Of a stretch of DNA of 64,000 nt, positions 21,136-63,443 are shown in pieces; positions within the stretch are counted from its first letter, which is position 1, and every line of letters starts with the position of its first letter. The notes below the pieces were generated by a model. It did no database searches. It saw only the letters and a program-made list of their open reading frames with translations, and was not told where the DNA came from. Origin of the DNA: a virus; the IMG/VR virus record IMGVR_UViG_3300008516_000159, one strand, 5' to 3'. A program made the translations under genes and the position numbers.

Positions 21136-22110
21136 TTAATCTTCTTTCTCATTCAAGCTCTTTTTGAGAGTACGGATGAGATACTCATTAGCCCAGTTGA
21201 AATCAGGCTTTTTTCGGATTTCGGTTTGAGCGTAAGCCAGTTCAACTTCTTTGTTGTATTCGTCATACATCCGCATAAGTTCGTCAAATGAAACCTCTTT
21301 GTTGCGGATACGGATAATGTCTTCACGAGCCTTGCCTACAATTGGAAAGTCAATTCGGCCTTTCTCAAGTAGCTGACGACCTTCATTGAGCAGGCGAATT
21401 AGATGATAAGCAAACTTAACATCGTAACTGTCGCGACCTTCACCGGTGAAGCCCAGCTCTTTGACTCTCCAACCATACATCCCATATTCACTCTTAATCC
21501 TGTTATATATATGCTCCAGAGGCATGCCCTTGTGAAAGTGCTCCGTATTGCCCTTTTCGCCTTTGTAGAACTTGAGAATATGATTAAGTTCTGAGGCTTC
21601 GAGTTCGGTAATCGGACGATCTTCAACAATCTCTTTCAGATATTTCAGACCAACACCAAGAGAACGAAACCTCTCGCGTTTCACAACCAGATGTTTGCGC
21701 TGGGAATAAGCATACCCAGTAAAAGTGTGGAACACACGGGTGCTGATAATCTTATCATAGTTGTCCATGATTTCCTTGAACTCAGGTTCAAGAAGCAGGA
21801 TGTCCTCGGGTTTAGCGAAAAGCACCTCAACTATATTGGGGTTATTCTGCATCACCAACTTGAGAAACTTTTTGATATTATAAGCTTTGTCATCAACGTC
21901 GCTCTTGACGTTCCGATGTTGAGCACTGGATTTTTTAGTAGATCTGTCGATTTCATCGACGTTCTTGAGGCCAAGGATATACTCCTCATCGGGAATGAAA
22001 ACACCCAGATAGTCTTCATCGGATTCAGGAGTATTGAGACCGTAGAGGTGCGAACCTATTCTGGAACGGAATATGTACTTGTGAACTTTTACTTGATGTT
22101 CTTGAGGCAT
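21136..22110 (-). CDS. Pol-beta-superfamily nucleotidyltransferase (RlaP/YcgL-like)
   Basis: GSHLYGLNTPESDEDYLGVF, NPNIVEVLF, YDVKFAYHLIRLL. Confidence 0.85.
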   Translation of the reverse strand: MPQEHQVKVHKYIFRSRIGSHLYGLNTPESDEDYLGVFIPDEEYILGLKNVDEIDRSTKKSSAQHRNVKSDVDDKAYNIKKFLKLVMQNNPNIVEVLFAKPEDILLLEPEFKEIMDNYDKIISTRVFHTFTGYAYSQRKHLVVKRERFRSLGVGLKYLKEIVEDRPITELEASELNHILKFYKGEKGNTEHFHKGMPLEHIYNRIKSEYGMYGWRVKELGFTGEGRDSYDVKFAYHLIRLLNEGRQLLEKGRIDFPIVGKAREDIIRIRNKEVSFDELMRMYDEYNKEVELAYAQTEIRKKPDFNWANEYLIRTLKKSLNEKED

Positions 22111-23522: not shown

Positions 23523-23530
23523 TATATATG
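23523..23530 (-). promoter_or_regulatory. CATATATA putative promoter upstream of SSB
   Basis: Recurrent motif, 33 nt before the ATG. Confidence 0.55.
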
Positions 23531-24168
23531 CCTCATCGGGTTTCTTTTTACGATAGGCGTTCCGGAAGTTGCTCACTGCCGACATGATTCTCTTATCCTC
23601 TGAAGGTTTTTTCAGAACAGGCTCGGCTTTGGCTCTTTCCTCTGTTTTCTTTTTTAAAAACGGAAGTTTCATTTTTTCCTCTCTTGAATATTCTGTTGAT
23701 TTTTTATCAATAAACCGTTTTACTGTAATAAACGGAAGTCCATCGAATAACGCTTCAATAGCGTTTAATTTTATTCTATTTATTGTCTTCATGGACCTCA
23801 AGTACTCCGTCTCTCATCAATCTCTTCATTTCGTGGGTAAACCCATCGACGTCGATTGTTTCACCGGATTTGATTACGTGATTCTTACCCTTAAACCGCA
23901 GAGTAAGTGTGTTTTTGGTGTTGTTAATGAGCGTTATTTTTTCATACTCAAGCAGCGTTTTAGCCACTTTGGTTAGGATCTTCCTTTTGGCCATTCCTTA
24001 GAATCTCCTTGGCTAATAACATTTTCTTCTGGCTCTCTGTTAGCGGGTTGCCGCCCATACTAATAAATACCGGTTTACCATCTGGTCCATGGAACCAACT
24101 AAAAGGAACTTCAATCTGTCTAGCTGTATTCTCCACAATCTTCACCACTCTCTCCTAGAATGTCATTA

Positions 24169-24501
24169 TTATATATGCTTCTTCCACCCCTTTATCAGTT
24201 GATGAAATGGTGCCCATGTTGCCTCGGGTAATATGTCTTTTATCGCCCTCGCTCCTACCGGATTTATCGAATGAACCACTATTTGAGCGTGAATGTCTTT
24301 CTCCGCTATAACCTTGGCCAGTTCACACCCTGTTACTGGTGTGCCCAAATCGTGATCTATAAAAATGATATCGTATTCGTGCTCATCCAACGAAGCAATA
24401 GCCTTCTTTGCGCTGTAGTATATGTGCAGCTCATGACCAGGTAGATACTCTTTGAATGCTTCTTGTCTCTGAGGTGAATCTTCTAATATGAGCACTCTCA
24501 T
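24169..24501 (-). CDS. stand-alone receiver domain, cyclic-phosphate-processing (cREC-like) type
   Basis: VLILED, IFIDHDLG, TG.ELA, VVHSINPVG. Confidence 0.75.
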   Translation of the reverse strand: MRVLILEDSPQRQEAFKEYLPGHELHIYYSAKKAIASLDEHEYDIIFIDHDLGTPVTGCELAKVIAEKDIHAQIVVHSINPVGARAIKDILPEATWAPFHQLIKGWKKHI

Positions 24502-25359: not shown

Positions 25360-27468
25360 TCATATCTCAGGCACCATTATTTTGTTTATAATGAGATCAC
25401 CATCCCGCATCTTGCCCATTTTGAAAACCAAAACTTTATTTTTGATCAGGTTACGAGCACTTTCGTTAAATTGATGCGCAAACAACGGATAACGCCTTAC
25501 TCCGTTCTCATCCCTAATCGATACAAAAGCCATCATGTTGCCGTTTCTATCGCGCTTTCTTGTTACATCAGTTATAATGCCGATCAAAGCCCTACTATCA
25601 AGCATGCTTTTCAGCTGTGCTATCTCATCGGCCTTTTCTTCATACAGTATCATTGATATATCCAATGTCAATAAGTCCTGTAATAACTCCAGCTTTTCCT
25701 GCTTGTTCCAATCTGTTCCTTCCCTGGTCTTGATGAACTGTTCAAATGGAACTTTTGCGCCCTTCTTGCGCCACTCATCATAGTTAGTATACAGCGTCCT
25801 GCGATTGCCGTAAAGCTTATCAAAAGCGCCCGCTTGTATCAAGCTGTCAAGAACCCTCTTGTTTACTTTCGTGCCGGTTTTGTGCTCCTTCAATTTGGTG
25901 AAAAAGTCAGTAATACTCTCATGAGGCGCGTGCTCGGAAATCCATTTAGCGGGAACCACGCCGCAGTTCTTGACATGGCTCAATCCATAAATGACGGTCT
26001 TGTCGTCTATAATGCTAAAGTGCGTTTTACTTTTGTTTACGTCCGGATATAATACTTCTATACCAAGCTGCTTACATTCAGCAGTCAGCCTATCCACAGG
26101 GGTTTTGTCAGAGTTCAACGAGGCGCACATAAACTCAACAGGATAATGGACCTTGAGCCACGCGGTGTAATACGCAATGGTCGCATACGATAAAGAGTGG
26201 CTGCGGTTGAACTGGTAACCGGTCTGTTTGATAAGATATTCCCACAGCAGCCTCGTCTCTTTCTGATTTCTGTTTTTCTTTTGACAGCCCTCGAAGAACT
26301 CCTGCTCCCACTTCTTTTTACCCTTGGTGTCATTCTTGAACTTGGAGTGCCATTTTTCCATATAGCGCCTGAGTGAGTCCGCGCGGCCCAAACTAATTCC
26401 GGATGCCATGTGCGCAATGTTGATGGTTTGTTCCTGGAACACCAATAGACCCAAAGTAGGTTTTAATACCTCTTCTAGAACAGGATGCGCATACTTGATC
26501 TCCTCTTCGCCGTGTCTGCGTTTGATGTAGTTGTTTATAATAGGAATAGAACCTGGCCTGAATAAAGCATTCATGATTACAATATCCTCAAATATTTTAG
26601 GTTTCAGCTTTTGTAAATAACCTTTCATCGATGGACTTTCAAACTGAAACACAGAGGTGGTCAGGCCTTTGCCAAATAATTTATAAACATCTGGAACCTC
26701 GAAGTTTATATTATGTATGTCTATTTCTTTTCCATGCCTCTCCTTTATAAAGTCCAGCGTATCATGAATAATTTTGAGAGTAGACAGTCCGAGTATGTCA
26801 AGCTTCAACAGTTTCATTTCTGCTATTGACTCACCATCAAACTCAGTCAAAAGCATGTCATCATCCCTGTTGTACTGACATGGAATATATTTTTGGACAG
26901 CCTTGTCCGCTATGATGATGGCGGCTGCGTGTTTGCCATAGTTACGCATCTGTCCTAACAGTTTCTCAGCAAACTTGAAGATTTCAGGATACTGGTGATA
27001 AGCGCTGCTTTCGTTCCAGTTAGTTTCGTCTATGTTCTTGGATATAGCAATAGCTTTCTGGGCGGGTATACCATGTATTCTCGCGGAATCCTGAAAAGCT
27101 GACTTGATGGAATAAGTAATGACGTTACACACCTGAGCGACGTTCGTCTGACCAAATCTTCGCTTGATGTAATCAATGACATCACCTCTGCGGGCATCTT
27201 CAAAATCAATGTCTATATCAGGAGCTTTGCCAGATATCGTCAATTTTTCAGGTTCGTCATTTATGGGATCATGATGAATGTATCCCAACAAATACCAAAT
27301 CAGGATATTGGGATGCGGGTCGGTTCCGTTATCAACATCTTTCAAAAGGTTGGTGTGAGTTATGATCTCATATTTCTTGAACTCTTTTAGTTCATAATCC
27401 AATCGCTGGCGATGCTTCTCGTCGTTTATGCCTTTTTCTTTCAACAGGCGGTATAGTTTTTCTTTCAT
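25360..27468 (-). CDS. dnaE: DNA polymerase III alpha, C-terminal part (catalytic palm, fingers, HhH, OB)
   Basis: APDIDIDF, GKHAAAIII, KLDILGL, VFQFES, GYQFNRSH, OB fold. No PHP domain and no GRGS. Confidence 0.95.
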   Translation of the reverse strand: MKEKLYRLLKEKGINDEKHRQRLDYELKEFKKYEIITHTNLLKDVDNGTDPHPNILIWYLLGYIHHDPINDEPEKLTISGKAPDIDIDFEDARRGDVIDYIKRRFGQTNVAQVCNVITYSIKSAFQDSARIHGIPAQKAIAISKNIDETNWNESSAYHQYPEIFKFAEKLLGQMRNYGKHAAAIIIADKAVQKYIPCQYNRDDDMLLTEFDGESIAEMKLLKLDILGLSTLKIIHDTLDFIKERHGKEIDIHNINFEVPDVYKLFGKGLTTSVFQFESPSMKGYLQKLKPKIFEDIVIMNALFRPGSIPIINNYIKRRHGEEEIKYAHPVLEEVLKPTLGLLVFQEQTINIAHMASGISLGRADSLRRYMEKWHSKFKNDTKGKKKWEQEFFEGCQKKNRNQKETRLLWEYLIKQTGYQFNRSHSLSYATIAYYTAWLKVHYPVEFMCASLNSDKTPVDRLTAECKQLGIEVLYPDVNKSKTHFSIIDDKTVIYGLSHVKNCGVVPAKWISEHAPHESITDFFTKLKEHKTGTKVNKRVLDSLIQAGAFDKLYGNRRTLYTNYDEWRKKGAKVPFEQFIKTREGTDWNKQEKLELLQDLLTLDISMILYEEKADEIAQLKSMLDSRALIGIITDVTRKRDRNGNMMAFVSIRDENGVRRYPLFAHQFNESARNLIKNKVLVFKMGKMRDGDLIINKIMVPEI

Positions 27469-27483
27469 ATTGTTATGTATGTC

Positions 27484-29490
27484 TTATGATTTAGTAACGT
27501 CATGTAATACCTTTGCGAGAGTCTCGAGCGTAAACGGTTTCTGTATAACATCCTTGAAACCATAATCTTTGTAGTTGCTCATAGCATTGGATGTAGAATA
27601 GCCGCTTGAAACAATAGCCTTGACCTGCTTGTCTATTTCCAGGAGCCTCTTTATGGTCTCAATACCATCCATACCCCCAGGCATAGTAAGATCTATAACA
27701 ACGGCATCAAAGTGCTTATCTATCATGGAACCCTTGTAGGTCTCTAATGCCGCCTCACCGCACGACACCACGGTAACAGTGTAGCCCAAGTCTTCTATTA
27801 GATCCTTGGCTATCTCTCTAACCGGCGCCTGATCATCTACAAAGAGCACGTTGCCTCGGCCATTTAGGTGTGCATCCAAATCTTCTTCTTTTATTTCTTC
27901 TAAAGTCGTGGGTAAATACAAAAAGAATGTGGAGCCTTTGCCTAACTCGGAATCAACCCACACGCAGCCTTCGTGATTTTTGATAACAGAATAGGCGGTG
28001 GCCAATCCAAGCCCGCTTCCTGCGTGTTTAGTTGTGAAATAGGGATCAAATATTTTGTTGAGGTGTTCCTTTGGTATGCCTATGCCTTTGTCAGCAATCG
28101 TAACTTCCAAATATGCACCCGGCTTTAGATGAGCATCGCAAGGTACGCCCATGGGCGCCTTCACCTCTCTCGCCGCTAATTTTATGACGCCGCCTGTGGG
28201 CATGGATTGCATAGCGTTTATCAATATGTTTTGTATAACCTGAGATATTTGACCAGGATCAATGTGAGCGTTAGGTATGTCTTCTGGTATGTTGTATTCT
28301 ATTTTAGAGTTACAACCACTAGTGGTAAAAGTGGTTGTCTCCATTATAATTTCCTTTATGGATACTGTTCGACGAACTGGCAGACCTCCACTGGAGAATG
28401 TCAACAACTGCTGCGTCAGACTTTTAGCGCGCTTGCAGGCCTTTAGTGCCTGTACAAGTCTGTTTATTACTTCATTTTCCAGTTTTAGATCTGGCTCGTC
28501 GAGAACCTGGTCAGATTTTACATGTCTGCGGCTATGCATCAAAGCCAGTTCGACATTGCCACTGATAGCCGTCAGTATGTTATTGAAATCATGGGCAATA
28601 CCACCGGCCATTACGCCAACTGCTTCCAGTTTTTGGGATTTAGATAACTCCAACTCGGTCTTTCTCTGGAGTGTAATATCTCTAAACACCGCGACAGCAC
28701 CGACAATATCGCCTTCTTTATTTTTGATTGGCGCTGCTGTATTATCGATAAGCCGGCTTTTGCCTCGTTTAGATATAAGAACTACATCTTTTTTAAGTTC
28801 AATAATCTTACCTGTCTCTAGAGCCTTTTGTAACGGGTTAGGGGCCATTGCGTTGGTCTTTTCATCAAACAAATGAATGATGGCATCAAAAGGCTTTCCT
28901 ATCACTTCCTTCTGTTTCCAACCAAGTATGTGTTCCGCCATGCGGTTTAGTATAGTTATTTCGCCTTTGGCACCTACAGCGACAACACCATCGCTGATGC
29001 TCTTCAATGCAATATTTAATCGTTCGGTTTCTTCGGCCAAGGCTCGCTGCGCCTTTACCCTTTCGGTAATGTTGCGATGCTGCACTATAGCATTGACAAC
29101 TTTGTTCTTAATTATAATAGGCGTGATAGTTACATCTAACGCGAGGGCGCTGTGCATCGTAAGGTGTGCGTGTTTTATCTCTGCAGGAGTATAATCTAAC
29201 ATAAAATGCACAGGTTGTTTTTCATAGAAAACCTTATCTATGAGAGGAATCAAATTCTCTTTGTGAAACTCTTCATCCTTGAATAGATTATATACTCCAA
29301 CTACTTGTTCATCCGTGATATCAAACAGATCGCGGTTGACCTGGTTCTGCATAATCATTGTGCCCTTTTCGTCCGACAACCACATACTGTTTGGGCTGTT
29401 TTGTATGATTTTGCCGCAGAACTTATTTATATCTTCTTTTGTGATTTTGTTATTAGTATTTAGTAACAGGTCGTTTTTTCTTTTTCTCAT
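27484..29490 (-). CDS. hybrid sensor histidine kinase PAS-PAS-HisKA-HATPase-REC
   Basis: GIAHDFNNIL (H-box), NILINAMQ, DKGIGI, FDPYFTTK, GSGLGL, VDDQ...IDLTMPG...KPF. Confidence 0.95.
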   Translation of the reverse strand: MRKRKNDLLLNTNNKITKEDINKFCGKIIQNSPNSMWLSDEKGTMIMQNQVNRDLFDITDEQVVGVYNLFKDEEFHKENLIPLIDKVFYEKQPVHFMLDYTPAEIKHAHLTMHSALALDVTITPIIIKNKVVNAIVQHRNITERVKAQRALAEETERLNIALKSISDGVVAVGAKGEITILNRMAEHILGWKQKEVIGKPFDAIIHLFDEKTNAMAPNPLQKALETGKIIELKKDVVLISKRGKSRLIDNTAAPIKNKEGDIVGAVAVFRDITLQRKTELELSKSQKLEAVGVMAGGIAHDFNNILTAISGNVELALMHSRRHVKSDQVLDEPDLKLENEVINRLVQALKACKRAKSLTQQLLTFSSGGLPVRRTVSIKEIIMETTTFTTSGCNSKIEYNIPEDIPNAHIDPGQISQVIQNILINAMQSMPTGGVIKLAAREVKAPMGVPCDAHLKPGAYLEVTIADKGIGIPKEHLNKIFDPYFTTKHAGSGLGLATAYSVIKNHEGCVWVDSELGKGSTFFLYLPTTLEEIKEEDLDAHLNGRGNVLFVDDQAPVREIAKDLIEDLGYTVTVVSCGEAALETYKGSMIDKHFDAVVIDLTMPGGMDGIETIKRLLEIDKQVKAIVSSGYSTSNAMSNYKDYGFKDVIQKPFTLETLAKVLHDVTKS

Positions 29491-29984
29491 GATATTTCAG
29501 AACACGGCACACCATTCTCCATTAGAAATGTTGAGCCGCTTATATCTCTGTCATACGGCTTGTTGAAATATACTTCTTTCACCCCAGCTTGTAATATTAG
29601 TTTTGAGCATGGCATGCATGGGGAATAAGAAATATACAGAACAGAACCTTGAGTTCGCACGCCGTTTTTGGCGGCATATATTAGAGCGTTTGCTTCGGCA
29701 TGAAGCTCGTTCCGTTCGGAAAATATTCTATGTTCTTCTCTGAACAATTCGGAGTTTAGATAATCTTCGAAGGATTTGAATTCATCATAATAATTTAATT
29801 TGTAAACTAGCTTAAAATGTTCTTCGCAATGCTTCTGACCTTCAGGAACACCATTGTATCCCATGGATATTATACGGTTATCCCTAACCAAAAGACCACC
29901 GACTTTAATACGGGCACATGTGCTTCGACTTGCTACAATCTCGGTAATCTCTGAAAATACCTTTTTCCAATCCGGTCTGCTCAT
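29487..29984 (-). CDS. dCMP deaminase (ComEB family)
   Basis: RSTC.R.KVG, GYNG, HAEANAL, SPCMPC. Start trimmed to MSRPDW; ATGA overlap with the kinase gene. Confidence 0.95.
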   Translation of the reverse strand: MSRPDWKKVFSEITEIVASRSTCARIKVGGLLVRDNRIISMGYNGVPEGQKHCEEHFKLVYKLNYYDEFKSFEDYLNSELFREEHRIFSERNELHAEANALIYAAKNGVRTQGSVLYISYSPCMPCSKLILQAGVKEVYFNKPYDRDISGSTFLMENGVPCSEIS

Positions 29985-31962
29985 GTTATTTTCCTTTGCT
30001 TTTGGTGATTTCGACTTTAAACTTCCGACAGTATACAACCGTAAACTCAGACAGTTGTCCACATTCTTTTTTATGCCGGCATTGCCTACACTTTTTTGCT
30101 AACAGCTCATTTGGCGTTTCAGTTCGCTTTTTGCCCATCTGATAAATCCTCCGAAATCAACATCATGGTCGTGTGGAAAATGCGTATCCTCAGAATGCTC
30201 AGCCCAATCTATAGCACATTTTAAATCGTAATCACCATAATGAATGTCTTTTTTCAAACCCCAATTTTCACCATTACAGTAATCTCTATAAGCCATTAAC
30301 ATGACTCTACAAATCGCCATTTTCTGCTTCCTACACTATAACTCTTTACATTAGATATTGAATTACTCCGTCGACTTGAAATGCGCAGGAATTAATATAC
30401 GGACTGAGATAAACTGGAGCTTTATTAAAGTTACCTACCTGGTGTACGCCAATACTTGACGCAACTTTAATTGGCTCGAATTCATCGAACTCCACCATAG
30501 CCTTATAGCCCTCTAAACTAAGAATGATCCAATTCATTTTTAAAAACACCTTCGAAAGAGAATCTCCTATTACATTTCTTACAGAGACAAGAAATCGTGA
30601 GTCTATTCTGATCTACTCCTGTAAAATATGCAACTAAAGTTGTCTCCTCAGACTGTTCTATATCTTTACCATCACAATCTACATAAGCACACTCTTCTAT
30701 TCTGATCATTTACTTTCCGCCTTCTATTCAGGTTCGATTACGACTTGTTCCTCGTGCTTAAACTCAAAAGCAAAGCCACACGTTACGCATTCTGCCCTGT
30801 AACCGGCCGTGAAACAGCCATCATCGGCCAGATAGAACTCATAATCCTCACGCAATGATTCATCAAGCTTTATCGGCTCTCTTGATTCCAACAACAAGGC
30901 TTCATATGCCTCTGGTGTCAATTTTCCATAGCCAGCTCTTGCTTTTTTTGAAAGATCCTCTGCTTTACTTTCTGCCATCTTAAGACACCTTGGGCATGTT
31001 GTCCAATTATCTGCACTCATTTTTCCTCCTTTAGTTTACGTATACAACGGCGCAACCCATAAAACTCGAGTTTACATTCGCAGCAATAAAACAGGCATTT
31101 TCCTTTGCCCCATTCAACCGCGGTTACTGTGTGTCCTTGGTGCTCGCTGTATCGCGCTATATATTTATATTTCATCTTTTGTTTGTCATGTCAATCCCCA
31201 AGGCCATAAACACACCACCAAAAAAGCATCCACCTATAGACAACCAGAGGGCCAGCATCGAGTGGCCCGTTTCTATAAGAGTTGGATCTTTGAGAAAAAC
31301 CCATAATGATATAAATCCAGACCCGCCAAACACGCCACACAGTAGGCAAAGTGGCATAAATATCATTGCCCAATTAATCTTTTCCATCTCACCTTTCCTT
31401 TAGTTCACTAAAAGAAATGTGCTTTTCTTTTAATGCTTCGAGCCTTATTAAAGCTCTATCTGCCGATTTATTATTGCCTGTCCTGTAAGCTGTGCATAAA
31501 TCCTTATAGATGCTAACTTCTTTTTCGAGTCTTTGGATGCAAATGTGGTGTTCTTCTCTCTCTGATAACCACAATCCTTCTTCAGCGGTCCGTAATTCAT
31601 CGTTCTCCAACTGAAGCTTTTGAATACAAGCTTCTGCCTGCTGCAACGCTCCTTCAAGCGCTTGTGCATCTACGCCCGATAAGGGTTTCCGTTGTTTACA
31701 TGCCGCTCGTATTGTCAATTTGTTCATCTTTTTTTTACCTTCAGAGCTCTTTGGATAACGGGGTCGGGAAATCCTCGCCACGAAGAATCTTCTCCATTGT
31801 CTCGACGATGTTTACGCCAATGTGAAATAACACCTAGGTGAATAGTGTTTCTTCTTCCTTCTACAACTTTTCCACATTCCGAACATGTCCAAGTATCTCT
31901 GCACCTACTTTCTTGCAGTCCCACCTTATATTTCCTTATCTTTTTTCAAGGTCTGCTCCATC

Positions 31963-32343
31963 TTATATTTTGTGCAATTCTTCCGCGGAAGGATCGTTCT
32001 TTTCTGAATAATTTGCAAATATTATATATAGCGCGCTTGCCACTGGATGATTCAGGTGATCATCCGCTTCGTAGTATTTATCCACCATATCGATGAGCCA
32101 ATCAAAAGTTGTGTTCGGGGGAAAGATGATGTTAGATATCTCATCGGCTTCTTCTCGGGTCACATAGTCATTACCGAAAAAGAGAAAAACGGATATTTGT
32201 GCACCGGCTGCGTAACCGGCCAGATACGTTGTTTTCATTTCGAGATCCCATCGTCTCCAATCTGTGCCATCCTCCATGAATGAATCTGCAAATAATGGAC
32301 AAGCAATCAGCATTATCATCAATACAAAAATAATCTTTTTCAT
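31963..32343 (-). CDS. exported protein, Rap1a-like fold (tentative)
   Basis: Signal peptide; TYLAGYAAG...LIDMVDKYY...NHPVASAL. Confidence 0.4.
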   Translation of the reverse strand: MKKIIFVLMIMLIACPLFADSFMEDGTDWRRWDLEMKTTYLAGYAAGAQISVFLFFGNDYVTREEADEISNIIFPPNTTFDWLIDMVDKYYEADDHLNHPVASALYIIFANYSEKNDPSAEELHKI

Positions 32344-32349
32344 AGTGTT

Positions 32350-33570
32350 TTATCCTAAGAATTTTATTGTTTTACCGCCTAATCTTTCTGGATTTAAGAA
32401 GCGCTCAAACTGTAACTTGTGTACAATAGGATCAACATCTGTTATGTTCAGGGCATAGGCTATAAGAGATCCTGCTGCGCTTCCCCTGCCAGGTCCTACA
32501 TAAATATTTTCAGACTTGGCCCAGCCAACTATATCTGCCACTACTAAGAAATAAGAAGAAAATCCTGCGCTATAGATGATCTTGAGTTCATAAGCCAATC
32601 TCATCATGTAGGTGTCATTTCGCAAGCATCTCCTATCCAGACCCTCTACGCACTTTTTGCGGAGTATCTCATCAAGGTCGGCGCCCTCGAACTCTGGAAT
32701 AGGAGGCACGATATAATCATGCTGCTTAATATCAAACACCTCTATTTTATCGGCTATCTTTACGGTCGTATCACACCACCCCTCAATGTCCTTTTTATCG
32801 TAGCCGGTGTTTATGCCTTCTCTGATGATTTCTTCTCTTGAGTGCAAATATATATTGTCTTCGTCGAATTGAAGCCCTTTGTCGTCGCCTACTTTACCGC
32901 CAGTATTGACCAACAGCAGTTTGGCGTGATCGTCTTTCTGATCTGCCGTTATATAGTGGGCATCAGCGGTGATAATGGCTGGAACCTTCAACATTTTCCA
33001 GAACTTGTATAGTTTTATTTCTATGGCTTTTAATCTCTCGGTCTGATGTGGTTGAAACTCTATATAAAAGTCATCGCCAAATACATCAAGATACCAATCT
33101 AGGTTCCTCTTGGCCGCTTTTATATCATTGTTTATCAACATGCTTGTTACATCGTTGGCAAGACAGGCGGTTGTGGCTATTATATTTTTACTGTACGCCT
33201 TCAAGGTCTCTCTATCTATACGCGGTCTTTTATAAAAACCATAACGATGACCAATATATTGCATCTGCATTATGTTACGATAACCTTCGATGTTTTTCGC
33301 CAACAGTACAACATGAAAACGTTTTTCTCCCTTTGGTTTGACTTTCAGATCATCAACCATATAGGCCTCAACACCTATCAACGGTTTGATCTTGTATTTC
33401 TCGGCAAGGTGCCAGAACTCATAAACTCCTGACATTGTTCCATGATCGGTTATAGCTAAGGCAGGCTGCCTTAGTTCTTCTGCTACATACTTAAGGCGTG
33501 CTTTTTTCGTCCCTAGCCCATCGAGTGCACTAGAATCGGTGTGTACGTGAAGATTTACGAAGTTATCCAT
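32350..33570 (-). CDS. dnaE: DNA polymerase III alpha, N-terminal part (PHP domain plus palm start)
   Basis: HVHT, ITDHG, GVEAY, DAHY, GPGRGSAAGSL, FERFLNPER, then ends before PDIDID. Confidence 0.95.
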   Translation of the reverse strand: MDNFVNLHVHTDSSALDGLGTKKARLKYVAEELRQPALAITDHGTMSGVYEFWHLAEKYKIKPLIGVEAYMVDDLKVKPKGEKRFHVVLLAKNIEGYRNIMQMQYIGHRYGFYKRPRIDRETLKAYSKNIIATTACLANDVTSMLINNDIKAAKRNLDWYLDVFGDDFYIEFQPHQTERLKAIEIKLYKFWKMLKVPAIITADAHYITADQKDDHAKLLLVNTGGKVGDDKGLQFDEDNIYLHSREEIIREGINTGYDKKDIEGWCDTTVKIADKIEVFDIKQHDYIVPPIPEFEGADLDEILRKKCVEGLDRRCLRNDTYMMRLAYELKIIYSAGFSSYFLVVADIVGWAKSENIYVGPGRGSAAGSLIAYALNITDVDPIVHKLQFERFLNPERLGGKTIKFLG

Positions 33571-40747: not shown

Positions 40748-41186
40748 GTTTATTCCTCCGGCTTCACTTTTTTCTTCTTCTTTAGTTCATTTGGTATATA
40801 TATGTTCTTGAGTGCCTGTTGTATGGCCTCTTGTGGGATATGTACTTGTATTTTATCATCTGTTTTACGTACTGGTTTTTTAGTCATCTTTCCCCCAAGA
40901 TAACTACATGACAGAAGCCGAACTTTACAATCTAAAATTACCGGCAGCTTTACATATCCAAGACACGCTTGGAAACCGCGCGCATATCATCAACGTCACG
41001 GCGCGCCGCGTGAGACGCGTGTTTTTCGATGTTCAAACAGTCAGACTTTACAACAGCAACAAAAGATATATTATATTTCACAGTCGAGGCGAATCTTCAG
41101 GAATCGCGGTTCTTGACGGAGAAATTCTGACAGGAACATCGAAGCTATCACATCAGAAAGCCAAGAGGAGCATGATCCTCATGGCC

Positions 41187-42500: not shown

Positions 42501-42508
42501 TATATATG
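42501..42508 (-). promoter_or_regulatory. CATATATA putative promoter upstream of the helicase
   Basis: Recurrent motif, 28 nt before the TTG start. Confidence 0.55.
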
Positions 42509-42825
42509 CTTTATCTATGCTTCCAAAGATAACAGAGAAGAGACGTCTATAATGTAGACAAACACCAAAGATAATAAAAAAGAAGGGAGAAAAACATGGA
42601 TCTTACAAATTTGCTCCAAAAACTTCACGACAAGATAGACAAAGAAGCAGCTGACAAAACCAAAGATCGTGGCATATCCGTTTTTGCCGCAGGCGACCCA
42701 GATAAGAGACCGAAGGAGTCTTTTGCCGAACTAGGCAAGGTTGTTACAAAGCCTCAGTCGGGAGAGGTATCCACAGGAAAGTAAATGAAACCGATGGTAG
42801 TGTCGGTTTAAAAAAGGATAAAAAA

Positions 42826-61174: not shown

Positions 61175-61843
61175 CTAATCATATATATGTGCCGTATCTG
61201 CTAGTTTGTTCCTGATGACAGGCTTGTTCATCCAATGTTCATCTTCTTCGAGCTGCTTAATGAACTCCGCTCTCACCAGCTTACCGCGCTGCTGCTTGCG
61301 ATAATTTTTTATAACTATACCTTCCATCATATCCTTGAAAGAACAATGAGAAGTCATTATAAAGTCATCCAAAGAATTAGTTTCTGTATAACCATAATAT
61401 AAGACAGGCACATGCTGAAAACCGAACTTTTTAACCTCCTGTATTCTATCGCCATGGTCAAGAAACTTTTTACCATTCCATATGTCAAAAACCAAAAAAT
61501 ACGATGGCAATTTATCGTAATCTATATTATGCTGAGCATACATTAATTCGCCGTAAATTATCCAGCCGATTGGAATCTGTACTATCTTTGGCTCATTGTG
61601 TCTTGCCCAATTCCAAAAGAATGAGAACTGTGGATGTATGCTATCCGCAAGACCTCTCCGCTTTTGCAAAGTCCAACCCTGTTTGCTGCGAATTATGCCG
61701 ACATTAGCTCCGTCAACTTTTTCGGTAATCTCAACTCTACCGGTCAAAAGAGCGTTCTGCTCCTGCTTGGACAGACAAAATTTGCCGCGGATCCGGATCT
61801 TAGGCGAAACCACCCTAAATGTCTTTTCGTACTTCAGGTACAT
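61175..61843 (-). CDS. ATP-dependent RNA ligase family protein
   Basis: Motif I EKVDGAN, IYGEL, FLVFDI, EGIVIK, GKLV. Confidence 0.85.
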   Translation of the reverse strand: MYLKYEKTFRVVSPKIRIRGKFCLSKQEQNALLTGRVEITEKVDGANVGIIRSKQGWTLQKRRGLADSIHPQFSFFWNWARHNEPKIVQIPIGWIIYGELMYAQHNIDYDKLPSYFLVFDIWNGKKFLDHGDRIQEVKKFGFQHVPVLYYGYTETNSLDDFIMTSHCSFKDMMEGIVIKNYRKQQRGKLVRAEFIKQLEEDEHWMNKPVIRNKLADTAHIYD

Positions 61844-62106
61844 CTTTAAATGAACCCCTTGAAAGTCCCTAAATTATTTACCATGGACTCGTTAAGTTCG
61901 AAATGTTTACAAGAACCAAATTTATGAATACTCAACTCTCTTGTTGTTTCGCTATGCTTGAGGTGATCATACTTGTGTAGACCACAGGTGCCCCACTCAG
62001 AGTTAGGAAAATTACTGTGCAGACAAAGGCCACACACTTTACAAACTTGATAATCTATTTTCTGAAGCTTAGCGAGTTTATTGGCGTCCATGTTGGCTCC
62101 TTATAT

Positions 62107-62424: not shown

Positions 62425-63443
62425 GTTTAATCAGAATCGAGGATATCAACAATCTGCCAGTGACAATACTCATCAAACTGACGAGGTTCTAATATCTTTC
62501 TGGCAGCCGCGGCATCACCCTGCGTAGCTTTTTCGTATATCCTGGATTCCATTTCTTTCAGATCATCAAACAATTGCCAATCCTTATCCAGGTAATTAAA
62601 GCACGCGAGAAAAGCTTTTGCCATCAGCTCTTCTGTTGATGCATCCCAGGCTATGGGAGCAATCTTTCTGTTTTCGTACAAAAGTATCCTGTCCATGTTT
62701 TCTCCTGTCTATCTTCTTTAATTTAACTTCGTCCTCGGCCTTCATCCGCATTAGATTGTCCATTGCCAGACATCTGCCACAAACAACCTTTTTACGGTTT
62801 GCTTGATGCCACCATCGGTTTCCACAGTCGCACTCTATTAAAAGATAATTAACTCTTGAAGACCAGCGAGCATCAATTATAGCCAGCTTTTTCTGCATTT
62901 CTCACAACACCTCACACATCAACCCAGATCTACTTTTTTCCAGCGCGAGTGGAAGTACTTTAATTTCTTTTTCATCTTTCTACACTTCTCACAGTACTTC
63001 GTATACTTATGCACTCCTGGGTGATCCTCGCTACCAGTATATCTTTCTATTGTTGGTATCCATACCCAATCATGTTTACACATCACATATATCCTAGGTT
63101 TCTGATATGCCTGCGTTTTATCGTGGGATATTTTCTTCTTTTCCTTCCCATTTGTTACAATACATTTCCTTTGGAAATGCTTCTTGTTTCAAGTTTCTCT
63201 CGTCGCAAAAGTAGTACAATCCAGATACTGCGAACTCTGTGTGCATGTGACAACAGTTTTTACAAGAACCAGATTTTAGCAATAGTCTTTTTGCTATTGT
63301 TTTTCTTGAAATATTTTTTAACTTATCTATTGTTTTTTCTAATGGTTCAACTGGCCGCAATTCTTGATTCCACAAAACAGGCATTTGCACCTTATAATAA
63401 TTATTGCTATCGTCGCTCATTAAATTCTCAACCTATATTCTTG

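Follow-up and report, generated by a model that had tools for sequence, protein, structure and literature searches.

We analyzed a stretch of 64,000 nucleotides (nt) of viral DNA (IMG/VR record IMGVR_UViG_3300008516_000159; hereafter, the window), and in particular a gene for a hybrid histidine kinase that lies among its replication genes. The window is phage DNA: it encodes a gp32-like single-stranded DNA-binding protein, DnaB helicase, primase, a DnaE polymerase that is split into two genes (dnaE-N and dnaE-C), dCMP deaminase, RlaP, an RNA ligase, and a lysozyme-domain protein. The kinase gene and the genes around it are (in window coordinates):

27484..29490, minus strand: hybrid histidine kinase gene, 668 amino acids (P0001); from the open reading frame (ORF) and its translation, Pfam, and AlphaFold2
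29487..30062, minus strand: dCMP deaminase gene (Pfam dCMP_cyt_deam_1, 5e-20), whose TGA stop overlaps the ATG of the kinase
25360..27468, minus strand: dnaE-C, the C-terminal half of the split DnaE (Pfam DNA_pol3_finger, DNA_pol3_alpha, and HHH_6)
32350..33570, minus strand: dnaE-N, the N-terminal half of the split DnaE (Pfam PHP, and DNA_pol3_alpha positions 2-98)

The genes run in the order dnaE-N ... dCMP deaminase - kinase - dnaE-C, and the product of dnaE-N consists of a PHP domain and the start of the palm. We read both junctions of the kinase gene directly. Its start is joined to the stop of the deaminase gene as an ATGA overlap, and the ATG of dnaE-C lies 15 nt past its stop, just as the initial annotation of this locus had described. 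(That annotation gave a range of 27484-29984. The kinase gene is the part from 27484 to 29490, and the rest spans most of the deaminase gene.) Because of its place in this run, the kinase is probably produced along with the replication proteins. The GC content of the window is flat, at about 0.40-0.42 throughout, and the GC content of the kinase gene likewise matches that of the flanking phage genes. At third codon positions its GC content (GC3) is 0.44, which is inside the range of the adjoining genes. The base composition of the kinase gene has been ameliorated to that of its phage neighbors.

Judging from its sequence and predicted structure, the protein is a soluble hybrid histidine kinase with two PAS domains, a DHp domain, a catalytic (CA) domain, and a receiver (REC), in that order, and it is presumably active as a kinase. 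Pfam finds PAS at residues 161-272 (4e-15), HATPase_c at 411-528 (8e-22; 78 bits), and Response_reg at 548-662 (2e-20; 73.8 bits). HisKA, at 294-367, scores 25.6 bits, which is 1.3 under the cut-off of 26.9. An AlphaFold2 model that was built from 70 homologues (mean pLDDT 85, pTM 0.62) resolves five domains:

29071..29439, minus strand: PAS-A, residues 18-140, a divergent sensor (AlphaFold2 topology and sub-threshold PAS_9)
28678..29001, minus strand: PAS-B, residues 164-271 (Pfam PAS, 4e-15, and AlphaFold2)
28390..28674, minus strand: DHp (HisKA) hairpin, residues 273-367, with the phospho-accepting histidine H300 (H-box AHDFNNILT and match to CckA)
27904..28371, minus strand: catalytic ATP-binding domain, residues 374-529 (HATPase_c; N, G1, F, and G2 boxes)
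27490..27852, minus strand: C-terminal receiver, residues 547-667 (Response_reg; D552/D553, D600, S629, and K651)

For PAS-A, the best Pfam match is PAS_9, which aligns over the full length of the profile and is sub-threshold (E = 0.032), and the model gives residues 18-140 the five-stranded topology of a PAS domain. The DHp domain is modeled as two long helices (273-324 and 333-367).

The catalytic residues are all present, as the initial annotation had stated for the H, N, G1, F, and G2 boxes and the aspartate of the receiver. The phospho-acceptor H300 sits in the H-box AHDFNNILT, in a column that is invariant in the 70 homologues. The ATP-binding boxes are complete (N425; D467, G469, and G471 in G1; F481; and G491, G493, and G495 in G2). 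So is the receiver, with the acidic pair D552/D553, the phospho-accepting D600 (in IDLTMP), S629, and K651. Across the 70 homologues, the catalytic columns are invariant except for D552 and F481, each of which is at least 90% conserved. The initial annotation had also noted the lack of a transmembrane segment and of a histidine phosphotransfer (HPt) domain. The first agrees with the hydropathy of the kinase, whose highest Kyte-Doolittle mean over 19 residues is 1.30. As to the second, there is no HPt at Pfam E <= 1 among nine small neighboring ORFs, and the kinase itself ends at its receiver.

The best sequence relative with a solved structure is CckA from Caulobacter vibrioides (PDB:5idj and PDB:5idm; E = 4.5e-30 for the DHp-CA portion of 5idj). 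CckA shares the H-box GG(I/V)AHDFNN and the order PAS-PAS-DHp-CA-REC, it also has no HPt within the protein, and the Joint Genome Institute labels one close homologue of the phage kinase as CckA. Because the identity is low, we consider this a family resemblance and not orthology. Unlike CckA, the phage kinase has no N-terminal membrane anchor. Nor does it have a known partner that resembles ChpT, although no search aimed at one was made. CckA binds cyclic di-GMP (c-di-GMP) via Y514, G515, K518, and W523 of the CA domain and G318 and R374 of the DHp domain (PMC5026420). In the phage kinase, Y514 and K518 are kept (as Y500 and K504), as is G318 (G296), but G515, W523, and R374 are replaced by S501, C509, and S367. 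Given these site residues, we reject control of the phage kinase by c-di-GMP in the manner of CckA.

A homologue of the kinase (P0011) is carried by G001, a 189,375-bp phage contig from IMG/VR, which was the sole close relative of this phage that we found. G001 and the window are collinear for more than 25 kb. In G001, dnaE-N, the deaminase, the kinase, and dnaE-C come in identical order, with the same overlap of the start and stop of the kinase and the deaminase. (The initial annotation had raised the question of whether related phages carry the gene; in this one it stands at the syntenic site.) The protein identities between the window and G001 are:

helicase: 76%
primase: 67%
dnaE-N: 67%
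deaminase: 55%
kinase: 48-51%
dnaE-C: 72-74%
cREC (a receiver-like protein that is discussed below): 41%
gp32: 67%
RlaP: 72%

Since the flanking core genes have diverged to 55-77% identity, a neutral 2-kb ORF would not be expected to have stayed open. At 48% protein identity between the two kinases, their synonymous sites are saturated. Within the kinase, identity to the G001 protein is 67% in DHp, 56% in REC, 52% in CA, 45% in PAS-B, and 29% in PAS-A: a conserved transmitter and a rapidly evolving sensor. The N-terminus of the G001 kinase matches PAS_3 at 2e-12. In our reading of the alignment, the PAS domains show no LOV-type cysteine motif, and there is no histidine common to both phages on the helical face of PAS-B.

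The two kinases also differ in the loop of the DHp hairpin. The window's kinase has an insert there of about 17 amino acids (window 28480-28530, minus strand; residues about 320-336; pLDDT 64-71) that is missing from the G001 kinase and from four other aligned homologues.

Other searches for relatives returned little. A megablast of 20 kb against GenBank phages gave no match, and tblastn of the kinase against the INPHARED/GenBank phage records gave no match across at least 80% of the protein (the partial matches are below 30% identity). When IMG/VR was scanned with single proteins, neither the kinase nor dnaE-C gave a match. A metagenome scan with the generic pattern KIFDPYFT was dominated by bacterial kinases and did not return G001. 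A scan with the dnaE-C alignment returned G001 alone, so the conservation of the kinase in relatives is seen in one sister genome.

Cellular homologues, by comparison, number in the thousands in a large protein database, and the best of them is 47% identical over about 80% of the length. They are plentiful in sediment anaerobes, and the named ones are from Desulfobacterota, Nitrospirota, Kiritimatiellota, Poribacteria, Spirochaetes, and archaeal metagenome-assembled genomes (MAGs). A tree of 107 kinases joins the two phage proteins as sisters (support of 99 in the Shimodaira-Hasegawa-like approximate likelihood ratio test, SH-aLRT) and puts them inside a clade with 68 cellular proteins (support of 100). 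The other 37 kinases from IMG/VR are far from this pair. It follows that this phage lineage gained the kinase gene a single time, ahead of the divergence of the two phages. The phage pair lies near the base of a taxonomically mixed clade from sediment, and the hoped-for hint about the host from phylogeny did not emerge in any usable form. Overall, this is a real and conserved phage gene. The protein family is an ordinary one, but its setting in a virus is unusual and stable.

We then considered what the kinase might act on. A receiver profile, run against all six frames of the window, has just two matches: the receiver of the kinase itself and the ORF at 24169, which encodes cREC. In the whole record of G001, there are exactly three receivers: the kinase's own, cREC, and a 326-amino-acid REC-HD-GYP protein (L083:1459-2439). 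The phospho-accepting aspartate (D66), the HD motif, and the HHExxDGxGYP motif of this REC-HD-GYP regulator are intact. The G001 record has no HPt at E <= 1 and no second kinase. (Its sole other match to HATPase_c is weak, at 21 bits, and is in a frame of 691 amino acids.)

The window itself has no copy of the REC-HD-GYP regulator, but several observations place one just beyond its end. In G001, the regulator is followed by two genes that match the window at 61849..62100 and 62599..62901. Also, for a database protein that is 63% identical to the G001 regulator (P0123), 45 of 67 index words recur in a 990-nt stretch of the window's genome that lies 681 nt past the end of the window. P0123 and the G001 regulator fall together in a subclade with support of 99. 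This gives one further feature:

about 64681-65670 (window coordinates, outside the window): putative REC-HD-GYP orthologue, placed by synteny and index look-up

On this placement, the orthologue would lie about 35 kb upstream of the kinase.

The regulator and soluble hybrid kinases co-occur in large phages. The regulator belongs to a well-supported clade that includes phage contigs of 250 kb and 388 kb, while most of its members are on unlabeled short contigs. Three near-complete phage records contain a regulator of this clade (G001; G006, 250 kb; and G014, 388 kb), and each of them has a soluble hybrid kinase. The kinases from G006 and G014 belong to another clade and are about 30% identical to the window's kinase. 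Because the kinases of the regulator-bearing phages come from two clades, it looks from the sequences as if the kinase has been replaced rather than lost. That the regulator keeps a phage kinase, even one of another clade, is what functional dependence predicts. As controls, we used 13 large viral records with other HD-GYP proteins, and these gave no match to a full-length hybrid kinase and one possible kinase fragment. Two-gene units of a REC-HD-GYP protein and a PAS hybrid kinase, with no HPt, occur at a cellular locus (L051) and at a viral one (L125). In L125, the kinase is of the second clade and the REC-HD-GYP gene comes directly after it. Another cellular locus, L076, is probably such a unit as well, although the end of the contig truncates its HD-GYP ORF. 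The association is stronger when read from the regulator to the kinase than from the kinase to the regulator.

Large contigs that carry a kinase with this H-box are by no means uncommon, and IMG/VR gave 44 such loci. The second clade of soluble hybrid kinases is found with HD-GYP genes on five IMG/VR contigs of 44-388 kb (L107, L090, L196, L201, and L125). The HD-GYP gene adjoins the kinase in L125 and is 10-14 kb away in G006 and G004. G006 has three kinase-like genes.

We propose that a phage-owned PAS kinase gates a cyclic-dinucleotide phosphodiesterase, and we consider this about an even call. Under this proposal, the phage lineage would owe its kinase to a single ancient acquisition from a CckA-like family of cellular PAS hybrid kinases, and selection would have kept the gene since then. 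Its two PAS domains would read an intracellular cue, the kinase would autophosphorylate at H300, and the phosphate would then move to D600 of its own receiver. From there it would be transferred, directly or via a host HPt, to the phage's REC-HD-GYP regulator. Phosphorylation would switch the regulator's cyclic-dinucleotide phosphodiesterase, whose target might be c-di-GMP or the signals of CBASS-type (cyclic oligonucleotide-based anti-phage signaling system) defenses. More tentatively, the two proteins may form a self-contained two-component circuit, in which a PAS kinase that is co-expressed with the replisome monitors the state of the infected cell and controls a REC-HD-GYP protein that erases signals only when needed. 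The conserved core of such a circuit would be the regulator, while kinases would have been exchanged between phage lineages.

The proposed logic is that of a known system. In Xanthomonas, the hybrid kinase RpfC feeds RpfG, a REC-HD-GYP phosphodiesterase for c-di-GMP. The phage lineage likewise would pair a hybrid kinase with a phosphorylation-switched REC-HD-GYP protein, and the architecture of the regulator is identical. A REC-HD-GYP gene is seen in the same genome as the kinase in G001, and is placed there by synteny and index look-up for the phage studied here. But RpfC is membrane-bound and has its own HPt, while the phage kinase is soluble, has PAS sensors, and lacks an HPt. Also, the genes for RpfC and RpfG are clustered, while those in the phages are 21-35 kb apart. 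Finally, no signal synthase is evident in the phage, and the system is borne by a phage.

The output end of the pathway also resembles a previous prediction. Stand-alone HD-GYP enzymes from jumbo phages were predicted to destroy the cyclic di- or oligonucleotides that act as immune signals (Iyer et al. 2021, PMC7824862). Such destruction of signals is likely to be the output of the proposed pathway. In contrast to those enzymes, the regulator in this lineage has a canonical receiver at its N-terminus, with an intact phospho-accepting aspartate, and co-occurs with a phage kinase. Because of the receiver and the co-occurring kinase, we expect the regulator's activity to be conditional and not constitutive.

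Several points weigh against the proposal. First, 35 kb separates the kinase gene from the regulator gene here, and 21 kb does so in G001, so the two do not form an operon. Second, hybrid kinases normally need an HPt, and we found none in G001 or among the nine small neighboring ORFs. Third, just 3 of 13 large viral contigs that bear such kinases have any HD-GYP protein, which argues that phage kinases generally have other outputs. Similarly, among 80 cellular loci of the kinase family, only 3 have an HD-GYP gene in their flanks. Fourth, the co-occurrence is counted over three or four genomes, G001 is 79% complete according to CheckV, and the regulator of this genome comes from synteny and the index look-up. 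The phosphotransfer step is likewise one that we infer.

The main rival is that the kinase acts on the host alone, and we consider this possible and on the unlikely side. Under this explanation, the kinase would inject phosphate into a relay of host HPt and regulator proteins, or drain phosphate from it (as a phosphatase), and so reprogram the host, while the REC-HD-GYP protein would answer to host kinases. The architecture fits, as a kinase that ends in a receiver and has no HPt is the usual form for the input to a relay, and a matching HPt could come from the host, given how abundant homologues are in sediment anaerobes. That G001 lacks an HPt, and that most of the large phages with such kinases lack an HD-GYP protein, also fit. 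But it leaves unexplained why every near-complete record with the regulator clade has a hybrid kinase, and from two clades at that. Furthermore, after divergence to at most 47% identity from all cellular homologues, a fit to the relay of any one host is not assured. The initial annotation suggested action on a host phosphorelay. Since this lineage encodes a canonical REC-HD-GYP regulator, which we place just outside the window, a phage-internal pathway is at least as likely.

The second rival involves the cREC protein, which the initial annotation had put forward, as the receiver at 24169, as a target for phosphotransfer. This explanation would have the kinase control RNA repair or the processing of cyclic phosphates.

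24169..24501, minus strand: cREC protein, 110 amino acids (Pfam cREC_REC, PF20274, 50.8 bits versus a cut-off of 27)

Its position is attractive: cREC is 3 kb downstream of the kinase, on the same strand, and is syntenic in G001. It also matches Response_reg (34.4 bits, over the cut-off of 30.2), and it keeps the acidic pair and an aspartate at the phospho-acceptor position. But it lacks the conserved lysine of receivers and the alpha4-beta5-alpha5 face. The cREC family was described as a phosphoesterase-like derivative of receivers that is involved in processing cyclic phosphates or ADP-ribose and is found in RNA-repair and ADP-ribose contexts (PMC7824862, PMC9503650). According to the same papers, it occurs in up to 18% of jumbo phages and never together with histidine kinases. 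The window provides an RNA-repair context, with RlaP at 21136..22110 (minus strand) and an RNA ligase at 61175..61843 (minus strand). Because the receiver lysine is missing and the family is described as never occurring with histidine kinases, cREC makes a poor partner, and we consider control of RNA repair by the kinase very unlikely. As a separate observation, cREC, RlaP, and the RNA ligase together resemble the RNA-repair set described for jumbo phages.

That the kinase gene is a functionless passenger, or that a piece of a bacterial genome was misassembled into the contig, is barely credible: full-length hybrid kinases are typical of chromosomes, and several of the partial matches in INPHARED are on records named after bacteria, but an intact gene in the same slot of an independently assembled genome, together with its divergence from all sampled cellular genes, excludes a recent passenger and a chimera, and its ameliorated composition, its start and stop packed tightly against essential genes, and its retention of catalytic residues while the sensor diverged all point the same way. 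The initial annotation had listed near-identity to a host gene and a chimeric contig among the outcomes that would undo it, and neither materialized.

Histidine kinases and receivers are also found in other viruses. A Foldseek search against BFVD gave such proteins from the phaeoviruses EsV-1 and FirrV, from Klosneuvirinae and other giant-virus MAGs, from the Agrobacterium jumbo phage Atu_ph07, and from "uncultured Caudovirales". PHROG 5982 matches residues 138-665 of the kinase at 5.5e-80. These other viral kinases have about 30% identity or less to the window's kinase and fall outside the clade of the phage pair, and among those that we found, none sits between the halves of a split polymerase. 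The histidine kinases of phaeoviruses are known, with no assigned function (PMC11890097). In the literature that we searched, no function or partner was published for any phage kinase, and there was no paper that examined a phage histidine kinase or that linked one to an HD-GYP protein.

Phages are usually thought to read the state of the host via host regulators or via small peptide or quorum signals. A conserved and intact kinase in a run of replication genes, along with a receiver-gated phosphodiesterase, suggests that large phages can possess an entire switch from stimulus to response. If the two proteins do work as a pair, they would offer a testable case of conditional counter-defense, or of the resetting of second messengers, by a virus. 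The pairing would also offer a way to approach the function of the many kinase genes that lack annotation in the genomes of huge phages and in PHROGs. If the circuit is self-contained, it would be the first two-component pathway from a virus to have its output identified. And if the pairing is wrong, the kinase would still be a clean case of the long-term retention of a bacterial signaling protein by phages.

Three minor features of these genomes deserve mention. First, the motif RCATATATA has 17 copies in the window, versus 1.5 expected. It is nearly always on the coding strand and upstream of genes, as at 42501-42509, 40797-40805, 24170-24178, and 23523-23531 (all minus strand). No minus-strand copy lies between 40797 and 24178, so the kinase has no upstream copy of its own. 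Second, dnaE-C from G001 (L081:11862-14501) is longer than the window's (25360-27468), with 879 versus 702 amino acids. The excess is a single insert of about 177 amino acids that starts with a cysteine and ends just before SHSLSYA. This intein-like element, which has no counterpart in the window's gene, matches Pfam Intein_splicing weakly (E = 1.5e-4). Third, between dnaE-N and the deaminase, the window has about 2.3 kb of small ORFs (30099-32343, minus strand; 63-130 amino acids), and the six of these that were compared to Pfam had no match. In G001, the deaminase follows dnaE-N after only 17 nt, so the gap within the split polymerase is a variable insertion site.

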